Positions 44,937-62,780 of a stretch of 64,000 nt of DNA are shown here, in pieces (the stretch's first letter is position 1; the number at the start of each line of letters is the position of its first letter). The stretch is from positions 1,952,001 to 2,016,000 of the forward strand of contig CAWCMR010000025.1 in the NCBI GenBank assembly GCA_963796685.1. The letters are read 5' to 3'. Under the pieces are notes generated by a model, which did not search any database, was not told where the DNA came from, and was given only the letters and a program-made list of their open reading frames with translations. The position numbers and the translations under genes were made by a program. The DNA comes from an uncultured delta proteobacterium (GTDB lineage: Bacteria; Myxococcota_A; Polyangia; Fen-1088).

Positions 44937-46347
44937 GGCTCTCCTGACATCTTCGTAAGGGGAGATCTCGTAGGTGCGACGCACGTCGTCGACGGAGATG
45001 TGGGCGGCATGAGTTTCGGGTGAGGTGGAGACGAAGTGCGCACGGGCACCTGGGGTATCGTGTGGCTTGTCTAGAACCCACAAGCCCAGGAGCCCATGCG
45101 CGCAACCACCCTATTCCGAAACCTACTCCAATTTCCACATACCCGTGTCCTGGCGGTCGAATTCGATCTGCTTGGCATATTGGTGCACGTGGCGCCAACG
45201 ACGACCGTTCCCTACTGCTCAGGCTGCGGATGTCGGGTCCATGACGTGTTCGATGCTCGGGCTCGGAACTGGCGGCATCTGGACGCGTGCGGGATGGAGG
45301 TTCTTCTGCGCTACACCCTGCGCAGGGTTGACTGTCCTCGGTGCGGCGTGGTCATCGAGATGGTCCCTTGGGCCGAGCCGAAGGTCGGCTTCACGCGTGA
45401 CTTCGAGGACCATGTGGCCTATCTGGCCCAACAAGCAAGCCAGACGATGGTGGCCGAAACCATGCGCATCGCGTGGCGCACCGTCGGCGCCATCATCCAG
45501 CGGGTGGTGCCGCGGCACCGAGATCCTAGCCTTCTCCTCGAGGACCTCGAACACATCGGCGTCGACGAGTTGTCGTACCGGCGGCACCATGAGTACGTCA
45601 CCGTCGTTGTCGACCACGTCTCGCAGCGGGTCGTCTGGGCACACGAGGGCAAGAACGCTGCGACGCTCGGCTGCTTCTTCGACGCTCTCGGCCCGGAACG
45701 AACTAGCAAGCTCAAGACCGTCACCATCGACATGTCCGCGGCCTACATCGACGCGGTCACCTCGCGAGCGCCACAAGCGCAGATCGTCTTCGACCGCTTC
45801 CACGTTCAGAGACTCGTGCAGGAAGCACTCGACGAGCTCCGGCGTGCGGAGGTCCGACTCCTGGAGGACACCGACGAACGCGGGCAACTGAAGAAGACCA
45901 AGTACCTTCTGCTCAAGAATCCGTGGAACCTATCCAGGGCCGAGTCTGAGAGGCTGTCGACCCTCCCGAAGACCAATGCCCGACTCTATCGCGGCTACCT
46001 GCTCAAGATCGCCATCTGCGACATCCTCGGTCGTCGCCAGGTCAACGTCGTCAAACAGAAGCTCGAAGAATGGATCAGTTGGGCCAGGCGATCCAGACTA
46101 CCTTCCTTCAAGAAGGTCGCCGCGACCATCAAGAAATACCTGGACGGCATCGTGGCCATTGTCGCCACAGGGCTCAATAACGGAAGAACCGAGGGCCTTA
46201 ATGGCAAGATCAGGGTCATCACCCGCAGGGCCTATGGCTTCCACAACGCTCAAGCCCTCATTGGCTTCATCTTCCTCTGCTGCTCAGGCGTTGTCCTTCA
46301 TCCCGTCTTCAAGGTGCCCGCGCTTCCATGAAGATGTCAGGAGAGCC
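44937..46347 (+). mobile_element. ISL3-family insertion sequence (1411 bp)
   Basis: IR GGCTCTCCTGACATCTTC at both ends; 8-bp TSD CGAAATCG (44929-44936, 46348-46355). Confidence 0.95.
45096..46331 (+). CDS. ISL3 transposase
   Basis: Zn finger CSGC/CPRC, WRHLD, VPWA, GVDE, IDMS, DRFHV, NGRTEGLNGKI, RRAYGF. Confidence 0.95.
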   Translation: MRATTLFRNLLQFPHTRVLAVEFDLLGILVHVAPTTTVPYCSGCGCRVHDVFDARARNWRHLDACGMEVLLRYTLRRVDCPRCGVVIEMVPWAEPKVGFTRDFEDHVAYLAQQASQTMVAETMRIAWRTVGAIIQRVVPRHRDPSLLLEDLEHIGVDELSYRRHHEYVTVVVDHVSQRVVWAHEGKNAATLGCFFDALGPERTSKLKTVTIDMSAAYIDAVTSRAPQAQIVFDRFHVQRLVQEALDELRRAEVRLLEDTDERGQLKKTKYLLLKNPWNLSRAESERLSTLPKTNARLYRGYLLKIAICDILGRRQVNVVKQKLEEWISWARRSRLPSFKKVAATIKKYLDGIVAIVATGLNNGRTEGLNGKIRVITRRAYGFHNAQALIGFIFLCCSGVVLHPVFKVPALP

Positions 46348-48992: not shown

Positions 48993-50213
48993 TCACTCGA
49001 CTGGCTTTACCATGCGTCCCATGAAGATGATCGCGCCGCTCTTCACGTCGCGGATCAGGTACAAGAACGGATGGTTCGCATGGAAGATGACCGGTGGCGG
49101 TGGCGGCGGCCCCAAGGCTTGAGACTGGTTCACGAGATCCATCTCGAAAGCAGTTACCGCCGCAGCCGCCGTCCCCTTCTCGTTGGTTTCGAGCCAAGCC
49201 TTCTGGATTGCATCCCCGATGAACAGCCTAGTCTCGGTCACGCCCGAAAAGTCCGCGTGATTGGGATCGAAAGCCTGACGGATCCCCATCGTTTTCAGCA
49301 TGCCTACCAACGGCAACTCTGTCTCCACAGTGAAGCGGGGCAACTCCAGATCCACCTTCTTGTATTCCAGAGCTCCGATCCACCCGGCGTGCGAAGTGCC
49401 CAGCTGGTCCTCGATCCTCTCCAGGCCGTCAACGTCGCTCGGCAGAACCACAATCATCGACAGACCACCCTTGTAGGGCAGCTCGACCAGCTTTGCCCCA
49501 CCCACTTGCGCATACCGGAACATCGAGATCTGTCTCATCATCTTGACCGAGGTCTCTTCCTCCACGGTGGTGAACTTGCCGTCATAGGTCGCGCGTTCGT
49601 CGAACGGCTGCTGCCACCCACCCATCATGTAGACGGCATTGGCCAGGACCATGCGAGCCGCCGGGTTAAGCTTGCCGAGGATTTGCGGAATGCGGCCATG
49701 GGTCTCGTCGGAGGACCATTGGTTAATGGCGGACAGCGCGGCTTCGCGGTTAGTTGCGAAGTCCACCTTAGCCAGCGGCGCGTGAAAACCGTCGCGAAGC
49801 CGTGAAACATACTCCGGCCGCAGCTTGAGGTCTTTCTGCACCCACACGCGATCGGCCACGTTCAGCACCAGACCGTCATTACCGTTGCGCGATGTTAGTG
49901 CGTTGAGAATGGCGGCAAACGATCTATAGGTCTCGTCGAGGTTCGCGGGATCGATGTGCAGCGTGTGCAGCATCTCGTTCTGGGTTTCACCTTCCGCGCC
50001 CGCAGCGACCATGGTCAGCGCGATGGCTGCCCCGGCGGGCGAGCACACAAAGTTGTCCTGGTCTCTTCGAGCCTGGCGGTAGAAGTCGAATCCGAAGGCA
50101 TTGCAGGCCTTCACCGCCCCGTCTACTGTCGAGGCTTTGAAGCTGGAGGCGCAGCCTCCGGCTAACAAGGCCAACGAAGTCGCGGCAATGGCGGCGGAAA
50201 CGCGCATACTCAT
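48993..50213 (-). CDS. Serpin family protease inhibitor (lipoprotein)
   Basis: LLAGGC lipobox; NAFGFDFY, GAEGET, INQWSSDETHGRIP, LANAVY, LPRF, NEKGTAAAAVT hinge, FHANHPFLYLI, FMGR. Confidence 0.95.
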   Translation of the reverse strand: MSMRVSAAIAATSLALLAGGCASSFKASTVDGAVKACNAFGFDFYRQARRDQDNFVCSPAGAAIALTMVAAGAEGETQNEMLHTLHIDPANLDETYRSFAAILNALTSRNGNDGLVLNVADRVWVQKDLKLRPEYVSRLRDGFHAPLAKVDFATNREAALSAINQWSSDETHGRIPQILGKLNPAARMVLANAVYMMGGWQQPFDERATYDGKFTTVEEETSVKMMRQISMFRYAQVGGAKLVELPYKGGLSMIVVLPSDVDGLERIEDQLGTSHAGWIGALEYKKVDLELPRFTVETELPLVGMLKTMGIRQAFDPNHADFSGVTETRLFIGDAIQKAWLETNEKGTAAAAVTAFEMDLVNQSQALGPPPPPPVIFHANHPFLYLIRDVKSGAIIFMGRMVKPVE

Positions 50214-50370
50214 GACTCCAACACTAGCGAGTCCCATGGAGAACACAAGCGGTGCTGCTTGCTCAAACTGACTCACTACCGTCTGGTCGATCAGTCGCAG
50301 ATTTTGCTACAAGCGATTGTCCAGCGATATCAAGGTGTTGCACTGCGGTGGCTCTAATGAGCAAGATATC

Positions 50371-50396: not shown

Positions 50397-52184
50397 TAAA
50401 AAGGCACTGTGTCAGAAGGGTGGTAATTCAGATGCATAATGGATCTAAGTCCCGGTGGTTAGTCGCGTTCATTGGTAGCGTCGTCGCCCTGTACTTTGGT
50501 TGCATCTCTGATCCTTTGCCCAAACGCTCCATCTCGACGCCAGATGGTGCCACAGAGGCCGCGCCGCTTATGCCCGAACTCAAGGACCAACCGGGCACAA
50601 GGGTGCTCAAGTGCACGGACGCCTACGGCTCCTCATCGCGCTATGCAGTCGATGATATGACCCGCAAGTTGGTGCGGTTCCCGAGCCTTGCAGCGTCCAT
50701 CGGCCTTACCTCTGTCAGTAACTGTGACGAGGCGATATCCTATGCCGGCGGCTACGATGAGTATTCGGGGCGCAACCCTGGCTTTGAGGAGCGCCCTGAT
50801 CCTAAATGGTCGGGCAATCCACCAACGGTGGACGATCGCGCGATCTTACCGAGGATCAAAGTGAAGGGCGGCGGGAAGACCGACACCTGGGCATTCCCTA
50901 CCAAGGATCATCCCGGCACCAGTCCGGGCCCTGTTGTTAAGATCGAGTCCGTATCTTGGTGGCCAAATGGGCAAGAGCAGATATTCCACAAGACTGCGGC
51001 AGATGGCATTGAATATAACGCCAACCAGTTCTGCGAGATATCCAGCAGCTGTACGGCCTTCTTTATCAACAGAAGTTGGCTATTGACGGCGGCCCACTGT
51101 ATGCAGAACGTGAACAAGTTCCCGGTGACTTACAATCCAGTCATGGTAGACGGACTCCTCACGTGCCAGTATCCTAGCGAGCCTAATCCTGCTTCCACTG
51201 ACCCCAAATACCCCCAAACTGGTGACCACAACGATTACCTTCCGGGCAAGGACATGCATGCGTCACATACGGGAGTTGCCCGCTACGTAATCTCTTGGCC
51301 AGCGAACGGTGATTACCCAAACGACGCTAATCAAGGTGTCTACTCGGTGCGATCAAATGCAGAGGAAATCTACTATGGAGTAGGCCTGTATCAGTTCCCG
51401 CATGAACAGTATGACCCGACGCAGGGTCAGCCCGACCTCAAGCAACCGGAAAACGTGGGCTCGCCAATCAGGCGCGGTCCCGATGTCGCGCTTCTCTCCA
51501 TGGCCAACTGGACCTCAGCGGCCGAATACATGGCACCTGACCTCGACAACGAAGCAGCAATGTACATAAAGGGAAAGCCGACATCGGCGACCGGGAACCC
51601 TGGCGCCGGCCTAACCTTCTGGGTCGCTGGTTATGGGTATAATCCGGCGCAGAACGATGGCGCGCTGTATGACGGAGTTCTGACGGGCAATGTGACATTC
51701 ACGGCTGATTGGCAGGACCAGGACACAAACAACAGGTTCGGCGGCTTCGGTAGCGTTTCGATGAACGTGACCTCTTTGGCCGAAGTCATCGTTTGCTCGG
51801 GAGACTCAGGCTCCCCGCTTTACACGGTGTTCACACCTGTCGATGGCGGACCCAGAAAGTTTATCGCATACGCCGTCCATTCCGGGGCATATCAAGCTCC
51901 ACCGGATGACGGTCGGGCGTGTTCGAAGCCGCCGGGTGACATTCTCTACTGGTCGCGAATAGAGGCTGATGACAGGTTGAGACAGTGGATGAATGTCAAG
52001 ATGGCTAATGGCCCCATAGCAACGACGGAAGATGAACAGGGTAAGTACAACCAGTGCCAACCCATGACCGACGCGGTCAACGGCTTGTACTACAAGTGCT
52101 GGGGAGATCCGTGTGACGGCCTAGATAAAGATGGCTCCTCGCTGTCTAAAATGGACGCGAGGTTGGTTGTTCCGCTAATCTTCC

Positions 52185-53462
52185 GTGGTGCAAAATCCAA
52201 GTTCTGGTCTTGACGTCAATGCGCTTTTTACAGTGGCTCTCGGCATGGTCAATCCATGGGAGGTCGTAGAGCTGAACCTTGACGCCGAGAAGAAGCGCCT
52301 CGACATCAAAGTCGACTTCAAGCCGGGGAGCACCTTCCCTTGCCCTACGTGTGGCGATGCTTGCAAGGTACACGATGCCTCGCCGCAGACATGGCGACAC
52401 CTGAACTTCTTCCAGTACCTCACCTATGTCGAGGCAAGACAACCTCGAACCAAGTGTGACAAGCACGGCGTCTTGACGGTCGATGTGCCATGGGCTCGTG
52501 GCGGGTCGAACTTCACCCTTCTCTTCGAGGCGATGGTGGTGGAACTGGCACGCAACGGCCTCACGGTGGCGGCGGTCGGTCGCATCGTCGGCGAGCATGA
52601 CACGCTCCTGTGGCGCATCCTGGAACACTACGTGGACGAGGCCCGTGAGCGAGCCGACTACAGCCAGGTCGCCGAGGTTGGCGTCGACGAGACTTCGCGG
52701 CAGAAGAACCACGTCTATGTCACGGTCTTTGCCGACATGGTTGCGGCGAAAGTCTTGTTCGTCACGGAGGGGAAAGATCACGGCACGGTGGCTTGTTTCA
52801 AGGACGATCTGCTCGCTCACGGTGGAGACGTGAAGAAGGTGACGGACTTCAGTCTCGACATGTCGCAGGCATTCATCAAGGGCATCTTGGAGACGTTTCC
52901 GGCGGCGCACCTAACCTTCGACAGGTTCCATGTCATCCAACTCATGAACGACGCAATCGATGAGGTGCGAAGGCAGGAGCAGAAGTCCTCTCCGGAGTTG
53001 AAGGGCACGCGCCACGACTGGCTGAGGAACGAGGCCAACATCAAATCCGAGAACAGGGAGCACTTCGCGGTCTTGCGCTCCTCCAAATTGGCCACTGCGC
53101 GGGCCTACCACATCAAGCTCATGCTACAGGAGTTGTATAGCCTGAGTGCGGATGAAGCGGAGGCGTGGTTTCAGCGCTGGTATTTCTGGGCCACCCATAG
53201 CCGATTGGAACCCGTCATCAGGGCCGCCAAGACCCTCAAGGCGCACCAGGCAGGCGTGATGAGATGGTTCATGTCAGGCCTGACGAATGGTCTCTTGGAA
53301 GGACTCAACAGCCTCATCCAGGCGGCCAAGGCGCGGGCGCGTGGCTTTCGCTCCGCGCGCAAAATGAAGACTGTGATTTATGGCTCCTCGCTGTCTAAAA
53401 TGGACGCGAGGTTGGTTGTTCCGCTAATCTTCCGTGGTGCAAAATCCAAGTTCTGGTCTTGA
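52185..53462 (+). pseudogene. ISL3 transposase of the outer copy, C-terminus replaced
   Basis: Identical to 53434-54696 up to KMKTVIY, then reads into the inner copy's left end. Confidence 0.85.
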
Positions 53463-54705
53463 CGTCAATGCGCTTTTTACAGTGGCTCTCGGCATGGTCA
53501 ATCCATGGGAGGTCGTAGAGCTGAACCTTGACGCCGAGAAGAAGCGCCTCGACATCAAAGTCGACTTCAAGCCGGGGAGCACCTTCCCTTGCCCTACGTG
53601 TGGCGATGCTTGCAAGGTACACGATGCCTCGCCGCAGACATGGCGACACCTGAACTTCTTCCAGTACCTCACCTATGTCGAGGCAAGACAACCTCGAACC
53701 AAGTGTGACAAGCACGGCGTCTTGACGGTCGATGTGCCATGGGCTCGTGGCGGGTCGAACTTCACCCTTCTCTTCGAGGCGATGGTGGTGGAACTGGCAC
53801 GCAACGGCCTCACGGTGGCGGCGGTCGGTCGCATCGTCGGCGAGCATGACACGCTCCTGTGGCGCATCCTGGAACACTACGTGGACGAGGCCCGTGAGCG
53901 AGCCGACTACAGCCAGGTCGCCGAGGTTGGCGTCGACGAGACTTCGCGGCAGAAGAACCACGTCTATGTCACGGTCTTTGCCGACATGGTTGCGGCGAAA
54001 GTCTTGTTCGTCACGGAGGGGAAAGATCACGGCACGGTGGCTTGTTTCAAGGACGATCTGCTCGCTCACGGTGGAGACGTGAAGAAGGTGACGGACTTCA
54101 GTCTCGACATGTCGCAGGCATTCATCAAGGGCATCTTGGAGACGTTTCCGGCGGCGCACCTAACCTTCGACAGGTTCCATGTCATCCAACTCATGAACGA
54201 CGCAATCGATGAGGTGCGAAGGCAGGAGCAGAAGTCCTCTCCGGAGTTGAAGGGCACGCGCCACGACTGGCTGAGGAACGAGGCCAACATCAAATCCGAG
54301 AACAGGGAGCACTTCGCGGTCTTGCGCTCCTCCAAATTGGCCACTGCGCGGGCCTACCACATCAAGCTCATGCTACAGGAGTTGTATAGCCTGAGTGCGG
54401 ATGAAGCGGAGGCGTGGTTTCAGCGCTGGTATTTCTGGGCCACCCATAGCCGATTGGAACCCGTCATCAGGGCCGCCAAGACCCTCAAGGCGCACCAGGC
54501 AGGCGTGATGAGATGGTTCATGTCAGGCCTGACGAATGGTCTCTTGGAAGGACTCAACAGCCTCATCCAGGCGGCCAAGGCGCGGGCGCGTGGCTTTCGC
54601 TCCGCGCGCAAAATGAAGACTGTGATTTATCTGCTGCTGTCAAAACTGGACTTCAGACTTCCCTGTGCATTTCCCAATTCAATCCATTCCAAATAGCGAG
54701 GAGCC
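53382..54705 (+). mobile_element. ISL3-family element (inner intact copy, 1324 bp)
   Basis: Both IRs present; 8-bp TSD TGATTTAT (53374-53381, 54706-54713). Confidence 0.95.
53434..54696 (+). CDS. ISL3 transposase (intact)
   Basis: CPTC, WRHLNFF, VPWAR, GVDETS, DMS, DRFHV, NGLLEGLNS, KARARGFR. Confidence 0.95.
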   Translation: MVQNPSSGLDVNALFTVALGMVNPWEVVELNLDAEKKRLDIKVDFKPGSTFPCPTCGDACKVHDASPQTWRHLNFFQYLTYVEARQPRTKCDKHGVLTVDVPWARGGSNFTLLFEAMVVELARNGLTVAAVGRIVGEHDTLLWRILEHYVDEARERADYSQVAEVGVDETSRQKNHVYVTVFADMVAAKVLFVTEGKDHGTVACFKDDLLAHGGDVKKVTDFSLDMSQAFIKGILETFPAAHLTFDRFHVIQLMNDAIDEVRRQEQKSSPELKGTRHDWLRNEANIKSENREHFAVLRSSKLATARAYHIKLMLQELYSLSADEAEAWFQRWYFWATHSRLEPVIRAAKTLKAHQAGVMRWFMSGLTNGLLEGLNSLIQAAKARARGFRSARKMKTVIYLLLSKLDFRLPCAFPNSIHSK

Positions 54706-55065
54706 TGATTTATCTGCTGCTGTCAAAACTGGACTTCAGACTTCCCTGTGCATTTCCCAATTCAATCCATTCCAAATAGCGAGGAGCCATAAAGATAACG
54801 GAAGCCAACACTGGTGCGACGACTACCAATCATGTGTTGGGTCTGGCAAGCAGCTTGATGATCAGCACCGTCCGTGCCTAGGCTGCCCCAATGCCCCGGC
54901 TGACAAGCCTTGCTCGTGTATCATGGGGTACTGCCAGTGGGACTCAGCAAAATTGGCCAACGCCGGTTTCGGAGGTGCGGGTGGAGCAAGTGGCGCGGGG
55001 GGGTCTAGCGGTGAGGGTGGCTCCACAGATGAGGGTGGCTCCACAGGTGAGGGAGGAAGTGCACC

Positions 55066-58000
55066 ATGAAAGGGTATACCGTGATGTTGAGGCGATCCGG
55101 CTCAGCCTTTGCGGTGCACGGCCTCCCGGCCTATCGTGCGCTCTTGGCCGCAACGATTCTGGCTGCAGCCGTCGGCTGCAGCTCGAAGGATGACGCCACT
55201 GGGAATGACCGCACAGGCTCAGCCGTGGTTGCGGCGAGGTCGAAAGCAATCATTACCGTGACCTCCACGCAAACCGCGACCGGAACCGTGACATCAACAG
55301 CCTACGGGACCAATTCCTGGACATCACTCGGGACGGTGACGACCACGGCCCTCGGAACGGTGACCTCGACGGCACTGGGGACCGTGACGACTACGGCGCT
55401 CGGGAGCCAGACCTGGACTTCGTACGGGACCGTTACATCTACCGCGCTCGGAACCCAGACTTGGACGTCGTACGGGACGGTGACATCGACGGCACTTGGG
55501 ACGGTGACATCAACGGCACTTGGGACGGTGACATCAACGGCGCTTGGGACGGTGACTACGACAGCATTGGGGACGGTGACGTCGACAGGGTTGGGAACGG
55601 GAACTGTGACGGCGACCGTAACAAACACTGCGACGATGATATCGACAAGTACGCAATACGTCACGGTGACCGGCACCGTTTCTGGGACGTGGACTGTGAC
55701 GGCGTGGTCCACTGGTTCTTGGACGGGCCCCGCCACCAAGACCCAGACGACGACGAACGTTTCCCCCAATCAGAAGCCTGTTACATCTAGCATCACTGGG
55801 ACCAAGACAGCCACCGATACCTCTGGCTACAATAGCGGAGTAACGAAGACCGTCACGGGCACGGTCACACAATTTGCCACCTGGGCGGGGACAACGACTG
55901 TCACGATGAGCGACACCGCGACCGGGACAAACCACTACAGTGGTTCTGGCACGCGAACGGTCAGCGGGACCGCGTCCAATACCGGAACGGCTACAGGCAC
56001 TTGGACCTACAGACTTACAAGTACGGCAACTCAGACGGCCCACAACACGGTGACGAACTACAATACACTGACGAACTACAATACCGTGACGGTCTATAAC
56101 ACGGTAACGAGCTACAACACGGTGACGGTATCGAATACGCTAACGAACCACAATACCGTGACGGTATCAAATACGCTGACAAACCACAATACCGTGACGA
56201 TTTCCAATACGGTGACAAACTACAACACCGTGACGAATTCGAATACGGTGACAAACTACAACACCGTGACGAATTCGAATACCGGGATCGTCACCACGAC
56301 GGGTACGGGCACGGCGACGGCAACTTCAACCAACACAGTTACGATCATCGTTCCGTTCCCAGTTGGGCTTGGGGTTGACACCAGGGCTGTCGGTGCTAAC
56401 GGGTCGCTTCAGGTGGGGGATCGTTCCAAGTCTCAGATGGGCGACGGCACGCCTGGCCCAATGTCCAACGCAGGGAGCGGTGTGGCAGATATCGGGGTGG
56501 ACTGCCAAATTGGAAGCCTGACCAGCCTAGGTTCGGTCTCGCTGCGGGAACGGGCACATATTCTTGGAAATCTGACGACATCGGGCACGGTGAATCCGCA
56601 AAACGATACCGTGGTTACCGGAACGACAACCCAGAATGCAGTGTTGACGCCGCTCTCGATCATGGCCTGGAGCACAGTGGTTCCGGCGACGAACATGGGC
56701 AACGTCCTACTCTATCCCGGTAGCAATGCCACGGTGAATCCTGGCGCGTACACAGATCTTACCGTCTACACCGGGTCAAACATGACCCTGACTTCTGGCA
56801 CGTACTACGCAACATCGTTCGATATCGAGCCGCAGGCGACGCTGACCCTTAATATGACCTCGGGCCCGATCGTGGTGTACGCGACCGGGGCAATCGTATA
56901 CAGGGGGACCATGGTGAACCAGGGGGGGACTGACGGAGCCTTCATGCTGGTCGAGTTGGGCGACACCGATATGGCCGTCGAGAACACATTCATCGGCACC
57001 ATCGTGGTGCCCAACGCGACGTTGACGTTGGGGGCAACCGTTCCCCTCACACTGCAGGGCCAGTTCTATGGGCAGAATATCGTCGTTCGCCCGGATACGA
57101 CCCTGGCGGCGAAATCGTTCCCGTGGACTGCGCTTAACCCGCCGTCCGGGGGTGAGTGCTGGTCCGCTGACGACACGGACAACGACGGGGTGTGGGATTG
57201 CCATGACAAGTGCCCGTACGATAAGAATAAGACAGAGCCTGGCGTCTGCGGTTGTAACATTCCTGATGTCAATAGCGACAGCGATGTAGCTCCCGACTGC
57301 ATCGATCAATGCCCCACTGATCCTAACAAGACCACGCCGGGACAGTGTGGGTGCCTGGACAAAGGATTTACAGCTGCGGGAACGCCATGCACCGACCGAC
57401 CCTGCCCACAACTTGGGCCACAGGAAGACACGGTGTGCAATGGCATGGGGGCCTGTGGAGATGTGAGCTCGTGCATACCAAATGAGGGGGACTGCAAGCT
57501 CTTAACCCTGGGCCAGATGGCCTATTATTTCTGCGACGCCACCTCGATGCCAGGCGAGCCACCACCTGCGGGGACTCCTCAGGCGAACGCAGAAAACGCC
57601 TGCCGGCAGAAAGGCATGGCGTTGATAAGTGTTGAAGACGCCACGAAGAACGAGAACATCCGGCGGATGCTTTCGGCGCCTATCTGGCTTGGGGCGAATT
57701 CCCTCTCAACCGCGGGTGTGTGGAGATGGGCGACGGCGGCCACAGACGACGGCAGCCAGTTCTGGAGTGGCGGTGCGAACGGGTCTAGGGTTGGAAACAT
57801 GTATGTGAACTGGGCAGCCAATGCCCCAGCGGATGGACAGTGTGCAGCGATGAACCCGGCAGATGGAAAGTGGTTTGCTGCAGACTGCGGATCGAACCTG
57901 GGCTATGTCTGCGAGTATTGGATGCCGTGGGCGAGCGTGCCCCCTCTTGGTGGTCCCCCAGTCCCGCTAGCTCCGCCGCCGATGGATAAGTGTACCCCCG

Positions 58001-60747
58001 AGAGCGCATCGATAGCCCAGCTGCCGCAGCCCGTCGGGAATCCTCCATCGGATGCCGCAATTCTTGCTGCTCAAGACGAGCTGCTGTGGCAGATAGGGCA
58101 CCCCGATGCAGGACAAGGCGCAGCGAGGAATCCTCCTGGGCCAGGCTCAACCTGTCCTCAGCCTGACCCATCGACCCTCGCGCTAGGACCAGTAGGACCA
58201 AGCGGACTGGCCGGGGTAGGCTGTCAGATTACAAACCAGAAGCTAGTTGACGGAGGGGCAGCTGGGGAGTGTACCAGCGATGAGCAGTGTCAGAGGAATT
58301 TTGGCGCCTCATATGTCTGTCGCGAGATCATGGATGATCCGCAGTGTCCAAAGACCTACGACCCGAACACCGACGCTTCACCGTGTAAGGAACGCGCCTG
58401 GTGCGTTGTTCTTGACTGTTCAGGACTGACGCTTCCAGGTGATAATAATCCATGCGACGAGATCCAAATCTGCAATCCGGGCAGCGAGTATGACGCCGGC
58501 GTGGATCCTGACACGAGATGGGATCCCCCGACTTTCGATCCTGGTCCGCTATTCCCGGGTGGCACGGTTCCCGACGCGAGCCCATCATCGGCCTTTAACA
58601 AAGATGATCCGAACCCGGGCGAAGCCGATGCAGGTGTGAACCACCCGTGGTGCAAGTTCACCACGCAGAACCCAGCGATGCCTGCGGCGGATCAACCAGG
58701 CAACAACAGCCCTAGTGCGAAGACTGATCAGAGCAAAGCAATCAGCCTTAGCTTCGACCCCAAGCTCACCTTCAATATCAACATAAGCCCAATTGCGATG
58801 GGCGAGACTAACCTTTCGATCAGGGCAGGGGCGAGTATGGGCGCGACGGTAAAGATCAATTCGTTCCTGGGAATGCCCTCGATGGAGAAGACCATACTCT
58901 ACGCTGGCGCAAGTCTTGCCCTGGAACGGTGCACTTTCCGAACAGACGATACACGACTTGAGCTCTTCGGCATCAATGTCCCGATCGACGACTATGTTCC
59001 TATCCTCAACACATCGATTAACCCGGAGGATCCGAGCACCGGTGACCCGAACCATTCAAACCAGGCGTTGTACAATGTCAGCAAGGCTTGCACGGATGCG
59101 CTGAATACGTACCAGGTCTGGTCCGGTCGCGTGAAGAAGTCTTTCCGCGATGCCCAACAGCTTCTCAAACAGTATCACGCCTTGGCCGGTATGCTGAACA
59201 AGGACAGCCTGTGTGCTGCAATCGAGTCGGTTGGCCCCGAGGTTCATGACTTTCCCGGTGGCGCAAAGTGCTACGAGAATGAATCGGTCGAGGACCTCAT
59301 CAATCGGTTCGTCTACTATTATCAAGCTCCGGGTATCGGACAGGTCACCAAGATGAAGGCCATGGCAGGCGGGCTGAAAGGTGCAAGCGCCGCGCTAATC
59401 CAGGGGATTATCGGAGCGTTGGCGGCGAAATGGAAGGAGGGGGGGCCGGGTGACTCAATGATTGAAATCAATTTCCTGAAGATCGACCATCCATATGCCC
59501 AGACCATCGCAAACGTGCCGTTCGCTATCGGTCCAATACCATGTGTGCTGCAGGTCGACATTGCGGCCAACTATGGCATCGTCGGCAATTTCGGGCTCGA
59601 CCTCAATTTTCCGACGGATATCCTTTTCGGCGACCCACCAGTATATGGACAACAAATAGCGCATGCTCGGGCGCAGGTTGTACCTTATGCGTCGGCGAAG
59701 TTGTCGGCATTTGTCGGAGCTGGATTTGACTACGGACCGTTCTCTGCAACATTAGGTATCGAAGGCTCGGTCAGTCTTGCGAAGATCCGCCTACCGATGT
59801 ACGGGGGAGCGGGCCTTGACGTGGATGTGCTGCAAGATTACCGCCCAATTCCTACTGACGTCGGGCCCCCCGTCTCCATAGCAACAAATGCTTTCAGTTT
59901 CGGGATTCCGAAAAACTTTACCTTCCACGCCACATACGACTATGGGATCAGGGTTGACGTGGACGACATTCTAGCTGGGGCCATCAATGCCCGGCTTCGC
60001 ATCAAGTTCGGCTGGTTTTTCAGCAGGACCTGGCGCAAGCAGATCGCGAAGTTCAATGGCATGAGTTTCCACAAAGACATTCTCGAGGGTCAAGGTACGA
60101 TTGCGAACGTTAACGTCAATTTGAGCCGCAACACACCTCCGCTGCCACCAACGGGGGCTTCTGCCCAGCTGCTTGGGGCTCCCGATGGTACGAAGGTGGA
60201 CGATGCAACGGCTACCACCGCGGTAGGTAACGCCACGATGGGGATTTCGGAGAGCGAAGTGCCATTGACTGTTCTTGCCTATCTGCCCGGCCCGGGCGAC
60301 CCGAACTACCACTATACTCCGGGGACTCTACCCGACGGTGGGGTCGGCGTTGATGGCGGACCGACCGGGCCAGGCCAAGTGACCTTCGAGAAGCTGGCAG
60401 GGTTGTTCTACGATAATCAGTGCTGCGCAAAGCTGGGAGATGCCTGCGAGGTAGACTATACCCCGTACCCGCCTTGCTGCCCAGGCACAGATTGCACTCC
60501 GGATACGAATGCTCCGTCGGTCAAGCACTGTACACAAGGGTGTCGAGCTCAAGGGGTGGAGTGCACAGGCGGTGGCCAGTGCTGCCCAGTCAATGACAGT
60601 GTGATTTGCAACAGTTCTGGTCTCTGCGGGACCTGTTCCAAAGGGCCCCCCGAGGACAGCCTAGGATGCACGACCGATGCGGACTGCTGCTACAACTATG
60701 CCTGCTATCATGGCGACCACTGTGTTTACCAAGGCGTCATCTACTGA
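55066..60747 (+). CDS. 1893-aa multidomain surface lipoprotein: Thr-rich repeats, beta-helix, TSP3 repeats, C-type lectin, beta-sheet domain, Cys-rich tail
   Basis: AAVGC lipobox; TVTSTALG and xNTVTN arrays; PGAY...GTYY...FIGTIVVP beta-helix; DTDNDGVWDCHDKCP; CTLD YYFC...IWLGAN...WRW...YVNW...GKW...YVCE; CC-rich end. Confidence 0.85.
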   Translation: MKGYTVMLRRSGSAFAVHGLPAYRALLAATILAAAVGCSSKDDATGNDRTGSAVVAARSKAIITVTSTQTATGTVTSTAYGTNSWTSLGTVTTTALGTVTSTALGTVTTTALGSQTWTSYGTVTSTALGTQTWTSYGTVTSTALGTVTSTALGTVTSTALGTVTTTALGTVTSTGLGTGTVTATVTNTATMISTSTQYVTVTGTVSGTWTVTAWSTGSWTGPATKTQTTTNVSPNQKPVTSSITGTKTATDTSGYNSGVTKTVTGTVTQFATWAGTTTVTMSDTATGTNHYSGSGTRTVSGTASNTGTATGTWTYRLTSTATQTAHNTVTNYNTLTNYNTVTVYNTVTSYNTVTVSNTLTNHNTVTVSNTLTNHNTVTISNTVTNYNTVTNSNTVTNYNTVTNSNTGIVTTTGTGTATATSTNTVTIIVPFPVGLGVDTRAVGANGSLQVGDRSKSQMGDGTPGPMSNAGSGVADIGVDCQIGSLTSLGSVSLRERAHILGNLTTSGTVNPQNDTVVTGTTTQNAVLTPLSIMAWSTVVPATNMGNVLLYPGSNATVNPGAYTDLTVYTGSNMTLTSGTYYATSFDIEPQATLTLNMTSGPIVVYATGAIVYRGTMVNQGGTDGAFMLVELGDTDMAVENTFIGTIVVPNATLTLGATVPLTLQGQFYGQNIVVRPDTTLAAKSFPWTALNPPSGGECWSADDTDNDGVWDCHDKCPYDKNKTEPGVCGCNIPDVNSDSDVAPDCIDQCPTDPNKTTPGQCGCLDKGFTAAGTPCTDRPCPQLGPQEDTVCNGMGACGDVSSCIPNEGDCKLLTLGQMAYYFCDATSMPGEPPPAGTPQANAENACRQKGMALISVEDATKNENIRRMLSAPIWLGANSLSTAGVWRWATAATDDGSQFWSGGANGSRVGNMYVNWAANAPADGQCAAMNPADGKWFAADCGSNLGYVCEYWMPWASVPPLGGPPVPLAPPPMDKCTPESASIAQLPQPVGNPPSDAAILAAQDELLWQIGHPDAGQGAARNPPGPGSTCPQPDPSTLALGPVGPSGLAGVGCQITNQKLVDGGAAGECTSDEQCQRNFGASYVCREIMDDPQCPKTYDPNTDASPCKERAWCVVLDCSGLTLPGDNNPCDEIQICNPGSEYDAGVDPDTRWDPPTFDPGPLFPGGTVPDASPSSAFNKDDPNPGEADAGVNHPWCKFTTQNPAMPAADQPGNNSPSAKTDQSKAISLSFDPKLTFNINISPIAMGETNLSIRAGASMGATVKINSFLGMPSMEKTILYAGASLALERCTFRTDDTRLELFGINVPIDDYVPILNTSINPEDPSTGDPNHSNQALYNVSKACTDALNTYQVWSGRVKKSFRDAQQLLKQYHALAGMLNKDSLCAAIESVGPEVHDFPGGAKCYENESVEDLINRFVYYYQAPGIGQVTKMKAMAGGLKGASAALIQGIIGALAAKWKEGGPGDSMIEINFLKIDHPYAQTIANVPFAIGPIPCVLQVDIAANYGIVGNFGLDLNFPTDILFGDPPVYGQQIAHARAQVVPYASAKLSAFVGAGFDYGPFSATLGIEGSVSLAKIRLPMYGGAGLDVDVLQDYRPIPTDVGPPVSIATNAFSFGIPKNFTFHATYDYGIRVDVDDILAGAINARLRIKFGWFFSRTWRKQIAKFNGMSFHKDILEGQGTIANVNVNLSRNTPPLPPTGASAQLLGAPDGTKVDDATATTAVGNATMGISESEVPLTVLAYLPGPGDPNYHYTPGTLPDGGVGVDGGPTGPGQVTFEKLAGLFYDNQCCAKLGDACEVDYTPYPPCCPGTDCTPDTNAPSVKHCTQGCRAQGVECTGGGQCCPVNDSVICNSSGLCGTCSKGPPEDSLGCTTDADCCYNYACYHGDHCVYQGVIY
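55285..55596 (+). repeat. 13 x 24-bp coding tandem repeat (TVTSTALG)
   Basis: Counted units: TVTSTAYG, TNSWTSLG, TVTTTALG, TVTSTALG, TVTTTALG, SQTWTSYG, TVTSTALG, TQTWTSYG, 3x TVTSTALG, TVTTTALG, TVTSTGLG. Confidence 0.92.
56041..56274 (+). repeat. 13 x 18-bp coding tandem repeat ([Y/S/H]NTVTN)
   Basis: Counted 13 full units from HNTVTN to YNTVTN, followed by a partial SNT. Confidence 0.92.
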
Positions 60748-60866
60748 GGACTCAAGTTTACTCGGTCGATGCGAAGTGCCGCGCGGCTTTCGGCTTTGCT
60801 TGTTATCACAGCGCTATACGCATCCGCCCCGAAGCTATCCCATCGATTTCAGGAGAGACACGAGAG

Positions 60867-62780
60867 GTGCAGTTGCGAACGATTCATGCAGTAGCGATTG
60901 GCTGTCTGGCCTCTTGCCAGCCGGCCGGACGGACTAGCGTTAAAGCAGCGCGGGAATCGAGCGCTGTTGGTGCGGCGCACTCGACGCAGACGAGGGCACT
61001 TGCGCCGGCCCCGTCTCCACCGGGGGCGATTTGGGCCGCGGGAAAGGTATACGATTTCCGCGTACATTCGACGGCGATGGTTGACTTTGGCAGCGCGGCA
61101 AGCGGGATCAGCTACGAGCTTGAAGCAAGTCCCAGGATCATGGTGGTCGACCATCGCGGGGATCGTACGACCCTCTATCTACGGCTATTGGGAGTTACGG
61201 TCAGGAATCCCCAGGCCAACGGCGGAGCGAACTTCGACCAGTTGGCGCAGGAGCTTCGTGAAGGCGCATGTCTGGCTGTGTTGTCCAGTGGACGCTTGGT
61301 AGAGCTCGGCTTTCGAAAAGGCGTCTCCAACGCGGCATTGGCCACCTTCAGGCAGCTAGCTTCAAGTCTCCAACTGGCGAAGCCGGGGACTGGTAGCTCC
61401 TGGCAGGCGGAGGAGTACGACACGAGTGGGCAGTATGTGGCGCAATATACTTTTGACGATGGGTCAAAGGTCTATCGCAAGGAGAAACTGCACTACCTGG
61501 CTCTGCTAGGGAGGCCTGTTGTGCCTGGTGTGGGGCCGCTCCAACTGGTTCCAGAGGTCAGAAAGTCAACAGGCGAAATCCGCCTGACCCACGATGGTGC
61601 CCTTGAGCTGGTGGACCTTGAAGACGCAGTGGTCCTGCAGGGCGCGCAGGTGCCCATGCTTTCTGAGACGCATCTCGTGCTCAATCTGACGGCGGTTGGG
61701 ACATCGGGAGTGGCAACCGATCCGACTCGGCTGAGATCAGAGTTCACGATTATGCCGGCCTCGGAGCAAGGCGCCAACATGCCAAGCCTGGAATCTTTGG
61801 ACCGGGCGCGGACGCAAGGGGCTACCTTTCGCGCAATTCTATCCCGCATTGAAGCGGAGCGTGAGACTCGCCAGCGCGAGACATCCAAGAATGTTCCAAA
61901 GCGCAAGAGCCAATCCGCGCACGGACAGCAGCAGATAAGCGTTAGAGCCATTGGTGATGTCGGGCTATTCAATGCCTTGGTTGCGTCGCTTCGCGAGAGC
62001 CAAGAGGCAGTGGATACAGCGGTGCGAATGATCAAGGAGGAGTCTCCCCTTCTCGACGTGCTGATCGACGCTTTGGGCTCGGCCTCCAACCCGGGATGCG
62101 AGGCTGCCTTGACGGGATTGCTGTCGTCCGCAGATTCGGAAACCAAGCCTCGCATTCTGTATGCGCTGTCACAGGCGCCCAGACCTGGCGACAAGGGTGT
62201 GGCGGCGATGAAAGCGTTGCTGGCAGAAGATCCCTTCAGCCAGACCGGCCTTTACGGGCTTGGGAGCTATGCCCGGCGATTCGCTGAGCAGGGGAACAAA
62301 GAAATGGCGGCTGAATTGGGCGAGTTTTTGATTCAGAAGCTGGAGAAAGCGCACGGGGCGACGAACAAGATTACGGCGCTGCGAGCCATTGAGAACTCAG
62401 GATACGCGCCGGCGATTAGCAGCTTGCAGCGATATTTCGACGATCCGGATCCGTTCGTTCGCACCGCCGCTATTCGAGCTCTTCGGCCGATGAAAGATCC
62501 CTTGGTGGCTGATGTCCTTGCTTCTCGAATCAGGTCAGATCATTCTTCCGAGGAGAGGCTGCTTCTCTTGGAGATTGTTGAGAGCAGGGAGCCGTCCAAC
62601 ACGCTGATTGGAGCGGTTGTGGATGCGTCGAGCACTCTCGACGTGAAGGTGCGTCGGCAAGCTGTCGGGCTATTGGCCAAATGGGTTGCCGGGCAACCAC
62701 AGTTGCGACAAGTGCTCAGGAAGATAGGCGAATCCGATTCCGATCCGCAGGTCCGCGCCGCGGCGCGCGTGGATCTCTAG
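60867..62780 (+). CDS. Lipoprotein with vitellogenin/MTP-like N-terminal beta domain and HEAT repeats
   Basis: GTG start with RBS; IGCLASC lipobox; GKVYDF...QEL...GRLVEL...FRQLASSLQL...EYDTSG pattern; HEAT repeats DPFVRTAAIRAL, DPQVRAAA. Confidence 0.7.
   Translation: MQLRTIHAVAIGCLASCQPAGRTSVKAARESSAVGAAHSTQTRALAPAPSPPGAIWAAGKVYDFRVHSTAMVDFGSAASGISYELEASPRIMVVDHRGDRTTLYLRLLGVTVRNPQANGGANFDQLAQELREGACLAVLSSGRLVELGFRKGVSNAALATFRQLASSLQLAKPGTGSSWQAEEYDTSGQYVAQYTFDDGSKVYRKEKLHYLALLGRPVVPGVGPLQLVPEVRKSTGEIRLTHDGALELVDLEDAVVLQGAQVPMLSETHLVLNLTAVGTSGVATDPTRLRSEFTIMPASEQGANMPSLESLDRARTQGATFRAILSRIEAERETRQRETSKNVPKRKSQSAHGQQQISVRAIGDVGLFNALVASLRESQEAVDTAVRMIKEESPLLDVLIDALGSASNPGCEAALTGLLSSADSETKPRILYALSQAPRPGDKGVAAMKALLAEDPFSQTGLYGLGSYARRFAEQGNKEMAAELGEFLIQKLEKAHGATNKITALRAIENSGYAPAISSLQRYFDDPDPFVRTAAIRALRPMKDPLVADVLASRIRSDHSSEERLLLLEIVESREPSNTLIGAVVDASSTLDVKVRRQAVGLLAKWVAGQPQLRQVLRKIGESDSDPQVRAAARVDL

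Follow-up and report, generated by a model that had tools for sequence, protein, structure and literature searches.

The window, a stretch of 64,000 nucleotides from an uncultured delta proteobacterium (Myxococcota_A; Polyangia; Fen-1088; contig CAWCMR010000025.1, positions 1,952,001 to 2,016,000), contains at 55066-60747 (+) an open reading frame (ORF) of 1893 amino acids (aa), the only long ORF at this place, whose N-terminal part encodes a threonine-rich module. The module occupies 55249-56349, which is exactly aa 62-428 of the ORF, and consists of an array of octapeptides, a core rich in Thr and Trp and an array of hexapeptides. On balance, the two arrays are best read as the two arms of a stalk; every repeat unit would lengthen its arm by a fixed rise, and both arrays would therefore have to expand together. 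The gene and its parts are laid out as follows.

55066..60747, + strand: whole gene, encoding a predicted lipoprotein of 1893 aa, with the module N-terminal and Pfam Lectin_C in the same frame
55066..55248, + strand: predicted signal peptide and short non-repetitive linker (aa 39-61), with a lipobox-like ...AAVGC and Cys38, read off the translation
55249..55284, + strand: N flank, aa 62-73 (IITVTSTQTATG), the last 8 residues of which are already octapeptide-like
55285..55596, + strand: N-arm, 13 octapeptides, aa 74-177, with a 16-aa super-period; a period-8 segment covers aa 80-184 (13.1 units)
55597..56043, + strand: Thr/Trp-rich core, aa 178-326, which would form the tip; aa 186-325 are homologous to lipoprotein cores
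56044..56277, + strand: C-arm, 13 hexapeptides, aa 327-404, with a 12-aa super-period; period-6 segments cover aa 322-408 and a period-12 segment aa 318-418
56278..56349, + strand: C flank, 24 aa, aa 405-428, ending in TVTII as read from the translation
56353..57135, + strand: next domain, about aa 430-690 (about 260 aa), without a Pfam name, belonging to a paralogous family; it lies outside the module and marks its end
57583..57915, + strand: C-type lectin domain, aa 840-950 (PF00059 Lectin_C, E 9.7e-11, 42.8 bits against a cut-off of 22.6)

A preliminary description of the locus had reported 13 octapeptides, a Thr/Trp core and 13 hexapeptides, and both the translation and Tandem Repeats Finder bear this out, the core measuring 149 aa with 36% Thr and 5 Trp. 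The 13 octapeptides (consensus TVTSTALG) are consecutive, as are the 13 hexapeptides, which are read here in the register NTVTNx. Threonine makes up 37% of the module and 8% of the rest of the protein. A hydrophobic stretch is followed by ...AAVGC at aa 34-38, and the same layout, by pattern reading, is found in five relatives that share the core; on this pattern the product is predicted to be a bacterial lipoprotein. The likeliest function of the complete protein is that of an adhesin or lectin at the cell surface. Besides Lectin_C, the protein has no Pfam match at E <= 1; the PilY1 domain PF05567 was not found in it by Pfam, and NCBIfam gives no match. The domain at aa 430-690 is matched in 40 of 89 family genomes (E <= 1e-10), with up to 9 matches per genome, and none of the 17 homologous ORFs inspected carries a Thr-rich module in front of it.

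Two further claims of the preliminary description, that the flanks of the module mirror each other and that variant units lie at matching positions in the two arrays, are true of this sequence but weak. Compared with the reversed C flank, the N flank agrees at 9 of 12 positions, yet with the forward C flank it still agrees at 7 of 12, such that the mirror likeness is barely above the Thr-rich background and its specific part comes down to the pair IITVT and TVTII, one at each end. Trp-bearing octapeptides at units 2, 6 and 8 and Leu-bearing hexapeptides at units 2, 6 and 8 are indeed present, and an exact coincidence of three among 13 positions has a chance of 1/286. The coincidence was spotted post hoc, however, and no matching Trp/Leu pattern was seen, on reading by eye, in three other proteins with octapeptide and hexapeptide arms (8/6 proteins); it gives no proof of register and was dropped as evidence for it.

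Tandem Repeats Finder places the first array at 55325-55581 with a period of 24/48 bp and the second at 56042-56282 with a period of 18/36/72 bp, and since the scores are better at 48 bp and at 36/72 bp the structural units are probably 16 aa long in the N-arm and 12 aa long in the C-arm. Where two units encode one and the same peptide, their DNA identity is 81% in the octapeptide array (13 pairs) and 92% in the hexapeptide array (6 pairs). This low identity indicates that the peptides have been kept by selection and are not the product of recent slippage, a look of recent duplication being limited to octapeptide units 9-11 and hexapeptide units 10-13. The arrays of the window and those of its paralogue and orthologues, described below, share 67-77% DNA identity and hence are not recent copies of each other. 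Judged from their DNA, the arrays are old and conserved at the peptide level. This bears on the suggestion, to which we give only a small chance, that the arms are Ser/Thr-rich linkers like those of secreted glycoside hydrolases, flexible, lacking a defined fold and possibly O-glycosylated. The S/T/Q/A-rich arms of relatives with a Laminin_G_3-type tip, which contain few hydrophobic residues, and the lack of a confident fold from the predictors would suit such linkers, but linkers would not need matched lengths, the units of the window hold Val/Leu/Ala/Tyr/Trp at fixed positions, and the peptides have been conserved despite drift at synonymous sites.

The window genome (G000, 88.6% complete) also encodes a PilY1-like paralogue of 2029 aa (P0006), in which a similarly sized core is enclosed by about 17 octapeptides on its N side and about 19 hexapeptides on its C side; a short hexapeptide run precedes this module and a short octapeptide run follows it. 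The C-terminal part of this paralogue reaches the PilY1 beta-propeller of Pfam (PF05567, 29.4 bits against a cut-off of 28.1, E 5.2e-7), and orthologues of it are present in two other genomes of the genus, G001 (L062) and G007 (L063). With the paralogue module as query, 4 of the 89 family genomes give a match at E <= 1e-8, G000 included; the match in one of these (G083, L028) proved to be an unrelated GGNT repeat and was discarded. L031 is a fifth 8/6 protein, ended by a contig edge after its octapeptides. Units were counted by motif-free period segmentation, and arm lengths were measured between fixed anchors. The counts for the four complete proteins are given below.

Window: N-arm 13.1 units, C-arm 14.5 units
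Own-genome paralogue: N-arm 16.9 units, C-arm 19.5 units
L062 (G001): N-arm 17.0 units, C-arm 18.5 units
L063 (G007): N-arm 12.9 units, C-arm 14.2 units

The whole arms of three 8/6 proteins measure 210/168, 203/162 and 170/138 aa (N/C), and the differences between 8/6 orthologues, 40/30, 33/24 and 7/6 aa in the N- and C-arms, fit a change of 5, 4 and 1 units of 8/6 aa in both arms. For the six proteins with unequal unit lengths, which are phylogenetically non-independent, the unit counts correlate with a Pearson r of 0.96, whilst the arm lengths of the 10 measured proteins correlate with r = 0.98. As the proteins are related, these figures overstate the amount of independent evidence, and the differences between orthologues are the stronger argument. 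The copy numbers of the two arrays thus co-vary, as the preliminary description had proposed, and do not change independently of each other among the homologues.

The same arrangement extends to a wider family of PilY1-like proteins, which was collected using the conserved first 116 aa of these proteins, as an alignment, as the query. This returned 31 metagenomic loci and 9 loci in genome records; among the 40, the ORF extends for at least 600 aa from the match in 16 and for 150-599 aa in 17. All loci that reach far enough display the same layout, in which a Thr/Ser-rich N-arm is followed by a non-repetitive middle, a Thr/Ser-rich C-arm and a conserved Cys-rich stretch. The module site is bounded on either side by a conserved stretch; its middle part is interchangeable, and so far as sequence can tell the region behaves like an exchangeable adhesin head. 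The tips include Laminin_G_3 domains in L057 (E 2e-14) and L058 (E 7.4e-7), a CBM60 domain in L064 (E 1.8e-9) and, in L065, a weak CBM35-like match below the cut-off, as well as Thr/Trp-rich cores without a family in L040 and the window. The hypervariable arm/tip/arm cassette after the conserved 116-aa N-terminus is found in uncultured Myxococcales, at L006 (G000:C25:~1013500-1019900, - strand) and L031-L070. Two other observations on this family were set aside. Proteins of about 1150-1300 aa that resemble module-less versions start right after the module, are most likely truncated gene calls and were left unused. An insertion of the module into a VWA fold was also considered and dropped, as the VWA_2 profile has no match at the paralogue locus, and a Pfam search with the pieces flanking the paralogue module likewise gave no match. 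Arm lengths within the family are as follows.

L040: N-arm 325 aa, C-arm 324 aa
L042: N-arm 245 aa, C-arm 244 aa
L050: N-arm 447 aa, C-arm 450 aa
L057: N-arm 447 aa, C-arm 450 aa
L069: N-arm 401 aa, C-arm 408 aa
L051: N-arm 335 aa, C-arm 372 aa
L058: N-arm 306 aa, C-arm 240 aa

The two arms agree in length in 8 of 9 proteins measured, L051 being the exception, or else their lengths reflect 16-aa and 12-aa units in nearly equal number. The orthologues L040 and L042 differ by 80 aa in each arm, and neither shows a single clear period in its arms. A period of 14 aa is the best for both arms in L057 and L069, and in L051 it is the best in the N-arm and second best in the C-arm. In L058 (13.4/12.6 units) and P0122 (19.1/21.1 units) the N-arm is built of 16-aa units and the C-arm of 12-aa units; the ratio of 16:12 is 4:3 as in the 8:6 proteins, though the repeat sequence is unrelated. 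The rule that emerges as robust is that both arms contain an equal number of units regardless of unit length, be it 8:6, 16:12 or 14:14.

The core of the window module has relatives of its own. Residues 186-325 can be aligned from end to end with N-terminal parts of further predicted lipoproteins, including P0004 (1e-14), L004 of the same genome (7e-11), P0047 (1e-10) and P0056 (1e-9), with weaker matches to P0003, P0088 and P0090; Pfam assigns no family to the core. In these relatives the arms are short or absent on both sides, measuring about 29/33, 29/32, 8/14, 69/66 and 69/68 aa after subtraction of a linker of about 24 aa that was judged by eye. On alignment, the window protein looks like the base module of L004 enlarged by 13 octapeptides N-terminally and, at the mirror position C-terminally, by 13 hexapeptides. 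A HMMER search against 1.84 billion representatives returned 85 matches at E <= 0.001, and of the 26 proteins examined (25 of the 85 together with P0003) most are unrelated low-complexity sequences whereas six contain the core. A word-based homologue search with aa 60-430 found itself and two weak matches among 7999 scored candidates, and a scan of the genome contigs for the pattern of the window module gave no match. Two predicted lipoproteins of another genome (L010 and L023 in G012) have very long Thr-rich N-terminal regions (32% Thr), whose first and second halves differ in their long-period repeats with no obvious core between them, and may represent a core-less form of the same arm pair.

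From the coupled arms and the exchangeable tips we infer the following path for the chain. The octapeptide array would lead away from the lipid-anchored N-terminus, the Thr/Trp-rich core would sit at the far end of the stalk as its tip, and the hexapeptide array would return, such that the lectin-bearing remainder of the protein would begin beside the anchor. The two arms would contribute the same fixed rise per unit or unit pair (a pair being 16 aa long in the N-arm and 12 aa long in the C-arm), much as a single rung does in a beta-solenoid or a cross-beta stack. With a fixed rise per unit, equal height of the arms needs an equal number of units, so that selection would couple the expansion and contraction of the two DNA arrays. 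The stalk would then display the core as its relatives display lectin-like domains; indeed, since lectin-like tips are exchangeable in the PilY1-like relatives, presentation of the middle domain is the most likely role of the arms. The out-and-back layout put forward in the preliminary description is upheld to the extent that matched arms surround exchangeable tips in the PilY1-like relatives, whilst for the window protein the path, the contact between its arms and the function of its tip are proposed by extension. Its more specific picture, in which each octapeptide pairs with a hexapeptide within one continuous antiparallel ribbon, finds no such backing. A flat ribbon paired residue by residue needs equal residue numbers, against which the unit rule speaks, and equal unit number with unequal unit length is better explained by a fixed rise.

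Structure prediction gives a partial view of how such arms might fold. AlphaFold2 (AF2), run on aa 1-495 without an alignment, places a 5-residue strand and a 3-residue turn in each unit of the octapeptide array (predicted local distance difference test score, pLDDT, 62-76) and 9-residue strands with 3-residue turns in the hexapeptide array (pLDDT 56-66), whereas the core remains below a pLDDT of 50. Together, this secondary structure and the T-x-T-x-T alternation of the repeats point to an all-beta module. With VIA-align, the octapeptide part of the model matches the solenoids 3jx8 (Z 10.6, root-mean-square deviation (rmsd) 3.0 A over 121 residues) and 3p4g (Z 10.4, rmsd 2.6 A), and the hexapeptide part matches a SufD-like beta-helix (9h78_B, Z 10.8, rmsd 2.2 A). 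Foldseek found no match to the AF2 model in the PDB at E <= 0.001, a PDB sequence search with the paralogue found none either, and the ESM Atlas held no usable match for the window module or for its relative P0047 (Atlas model with a predicted template modelling score of 0.29). For the short-armed module of L004, AF2 with an alignment of 8 rows reached a mean pLDDT of 34.7 and the model was unusable. A complex prediction of aa 58-190 against aa 310-432 (score 0.00, mark 0.34) returned no verdict and was used neither way.

The preliminary description had also linked the T-x-T face of the repeats with ice binding, ice nucleation or amyloid, and the solenoid matches allow this idea to be weighed. 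Under it, the T-x-T faces would bind or nucleate ice, or self-associate in an amyloid-like manner, with the repeat number tuning the activity. The units do contain T-x-T-x-T and T-x-T ladders, and two ice-binding solenoids are found among the VIA-align matches, 3p4g and 3ult (Z 11.4, rmsd 8.4 A). These matches, though, are generic, lying among 34 solenoid chains at Z >= 8, and no Pfam ice-nucleation or antifreeze family is matched. Moreover, the arms found at the same site in relatives are S/Q/N-rich and without a T-x-T ladder, which suggests that the shared role of the arms is structural. The idea gained no specific support and is regarded as very improbable.

Several observations weigh against the two-arm stalk. 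The AF2 model of aa 1-495 has a mean pLDDT of 46.4 and offers no confident structure, the four complete 8/6 proteins are few and three of them are mutual orthologues or paralogues, and the short outer arrays of the 8/6 PilY1-like proteins are unmatched (5.5-7.8 against 3.1-4.1 units). The arms of L051 are unequal, as listed above, as are those of the CBM-type proteins L064 and L065 when judged by eye (about 140-165 against 100 aa, with rough borders). The PF13519 profile has 22 matches in the genome and none at the locus of the paralogue, a place where a split domain could escape the profile. The N-terminus of the window protein is free except for its lipid, which means that a return of the chain is not forced. 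Automatic counting gives 1.3-2.6 more hexapeptide than octapeptide units in the four 8/6 proteins, so that the match is about 1:1.1 (equality to within some 10%) and varies with the scoring of degenerate edge units. Finally, the AlphaFold check that the preliminary description had proposed, in expectation of long-range antiparallel contacts, gave a low-confidence AF2 model that folds the two arrays as separate beta-solenoid bodies (aa 62-182 and aa 283-414) with unlike numbers of residues per strand. Such shapes are often the default of the predictor for repeats at low confidence.

The last three points, a topologically unconstrained N-terminus, unit counts that are not exactly equal and separate solenoid-like bodies, also favour another explanation, namely that the arms are independent rigid beta-solenoid spacers without contact and the module is a linear spacer or a decoration, the equal counts reflecting shared ancestry or a loose preference. 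This is considered rather unlikely. The model from which the separate bodies derive is of low confidence, orthologues with arrays of unlike size have changed by equally many units in the two arms, and pairs of arms of 325/324 and 245/244 aa are hard to explain without a constraint. The two-arm stalk consequently remains the preferred reading. A bolder version of it, which is put forward tentatively and with somewhat more doubt than conviction, is that the module represents an undescribed architecture, a 'geared' two-arm cross-beta stalk in which repeats of unlike length provide the same number of rungs, and that it serves as a general Myxococcota cassette for lectin-like tips, both in lipoproteins and in type IV pilus tip adhesins. 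The preliminary description knew of no family with this design, and none has been found described in Pfam, NCBIfam or the literature searched.

Coupled change in the copy number of two separate tandem arrays within one gene is rare and offers a clean handle on selection for geometry. The equal-unit rule with unequal unit lengths amounts to a sharp structural prediction and is a possible guide for the design of rods of set length. If the geared stalk is real, stalk length would be a heritable property that can be tuned stepwise through the coupled expansion of two DNA arrays. A stalk formed by the arms might also account for the way in which certain PilY1-like pilus tip adhesins and lipoproteins in uncultured Myxococcota keep carbohydrate-binding domains at a distance from the body of the protein.

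The gene is directly preceded by two ISL3-family transposase genes in tandem (52185-53462 and 53434-54696, both +), a pair that could have arisen through a genuine double insertion or through the assembly, and 7 kb upstream of them is a third (45096-46331, +); all match Pfam DDE_Tnp_ISL3 with E of about 1e-62 to 1e-71. An 83-bp stretch is perfectly duplicated in tandem (2.0 copies, 100% match) at 54623-54788, at the end of the second transposase gene of the pair and about 280 bp before the start codon of the lectin gene. The repeat may represent a duplicated insertion sequence end and might influence the gene's promoter. Further upstream, a serpin gene (48993-50276, -; Pfam Serpin, E 1.5e-101) adjoins a gene at 50420-52213 (+) with a short trypsin-like match (E 3.1e-9), and by these profile matches the two could constitute a protease/inhibitor pair, which would be unusual in bacteria. 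The downstream ORF at 60606-62780 (+) contains HEAT repeats and a match to a vitellogenin/lipoprotein N-terminal region (E 6.7e-11). The TTG start listed for it falls about 140 bp before the lectin gene ends, so the real start probably lies further downstream.

The coils of beetle antifreeze proteins are 12 aa long and the repeats of the bacterial ice-nucleation protein InaZ 16 aa. The module resembles these T-x-T antifreeze and ice-nucleation solenoids in its short Thr-rich T-x-T repeats and in super-periods of 16 and 12 aa that equal their coil sizes, and the low-confidence model of the octapeptide array superposes on the antifreeze protein MpAFP (3p4g). Unlike the module, such solenoids are single arrays without a matched second array or a tip domain, and the module has neither a family match among them nor a disulfide pattern. 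No match to the InaZ-type ice-nucleation repeat of Pfam is found in the window protein, and the shared feature is the 16-aa super-period only. The hexapep left-handed beta-helix, in which three hexapeptides (18 aa) make up a coil, likewise has no Pfam match, and the DNA super-periods are of 36 and 72 bp rather than 54 bp.

The paralogue and the metagenomic carriers of the module are similar to the PilY1 adhesins at the tips of type IV pili in that they reach PF05567 (from precomputed Pfam assignments for several), in contrast to the window's own protein, which has no PilY1 domain. Variability of the N-terminus of myxobacterial PilY1 was described in a 2026 survey (PMC13190605), the main text of which makes no mention of threonine, repeat, insertion, lectin, laminin or carbohydrate-binding, although its supplements may list such architectures. 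In fibrillar adhesins a stalk built of repeats projects an adhesive domain (PMC9210967). There, folded domains follow one another in a linear chain and the adhesive domain occupies one end of the sequence, whereas the proposed tip of the window protein lies in mid-sequence between its arms. Among the matches listed by a full-text search of the literature for threonine-rich tandem-repeat stalks in adhesins, those found concern fungal or general fibrillar adhesins. Adhesin stalks built of repeats are already known; the fold and the gearing rule have a fair chance of being new.

The nearest analogue in design is the A/P stalk of antigen I/II (AgI/II) proteins from streptococci. In SpaP, SspB and BspA, alanine-rich A-repeats and proline-rich P-repeats flank the V-domain and intertwine as a stalk (PMC7732690), which raises the variable, ligand-binding domain more than 50 nm off the cell (PMC7732690). 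Both designs place two different arrays around a central domain, with unit lengths that differ and yet must match, the arms being associated in AgI/II and proposed to be so here. The hallmarks of AgI/II, namely alanine-rich heptad A-repeats, proline-rich P-repeats and LPXTG, are all missing from the window translation, and there is no relation in sequence or in Pfam. The AgI/II arms pair an alpha-helix with a proline-rich strand in Gram-positive LPXTG proteins, whereas the arms of the window are Thr-rich, predicted to be beta and built of 8/6-aa units, their host proteins being a Myxococcota lipoprotein and PilY1-like proteins. If the arms do form a stalk, it would constitute an all-beta, Gram-negative counterpart of the AgI/II stalk.

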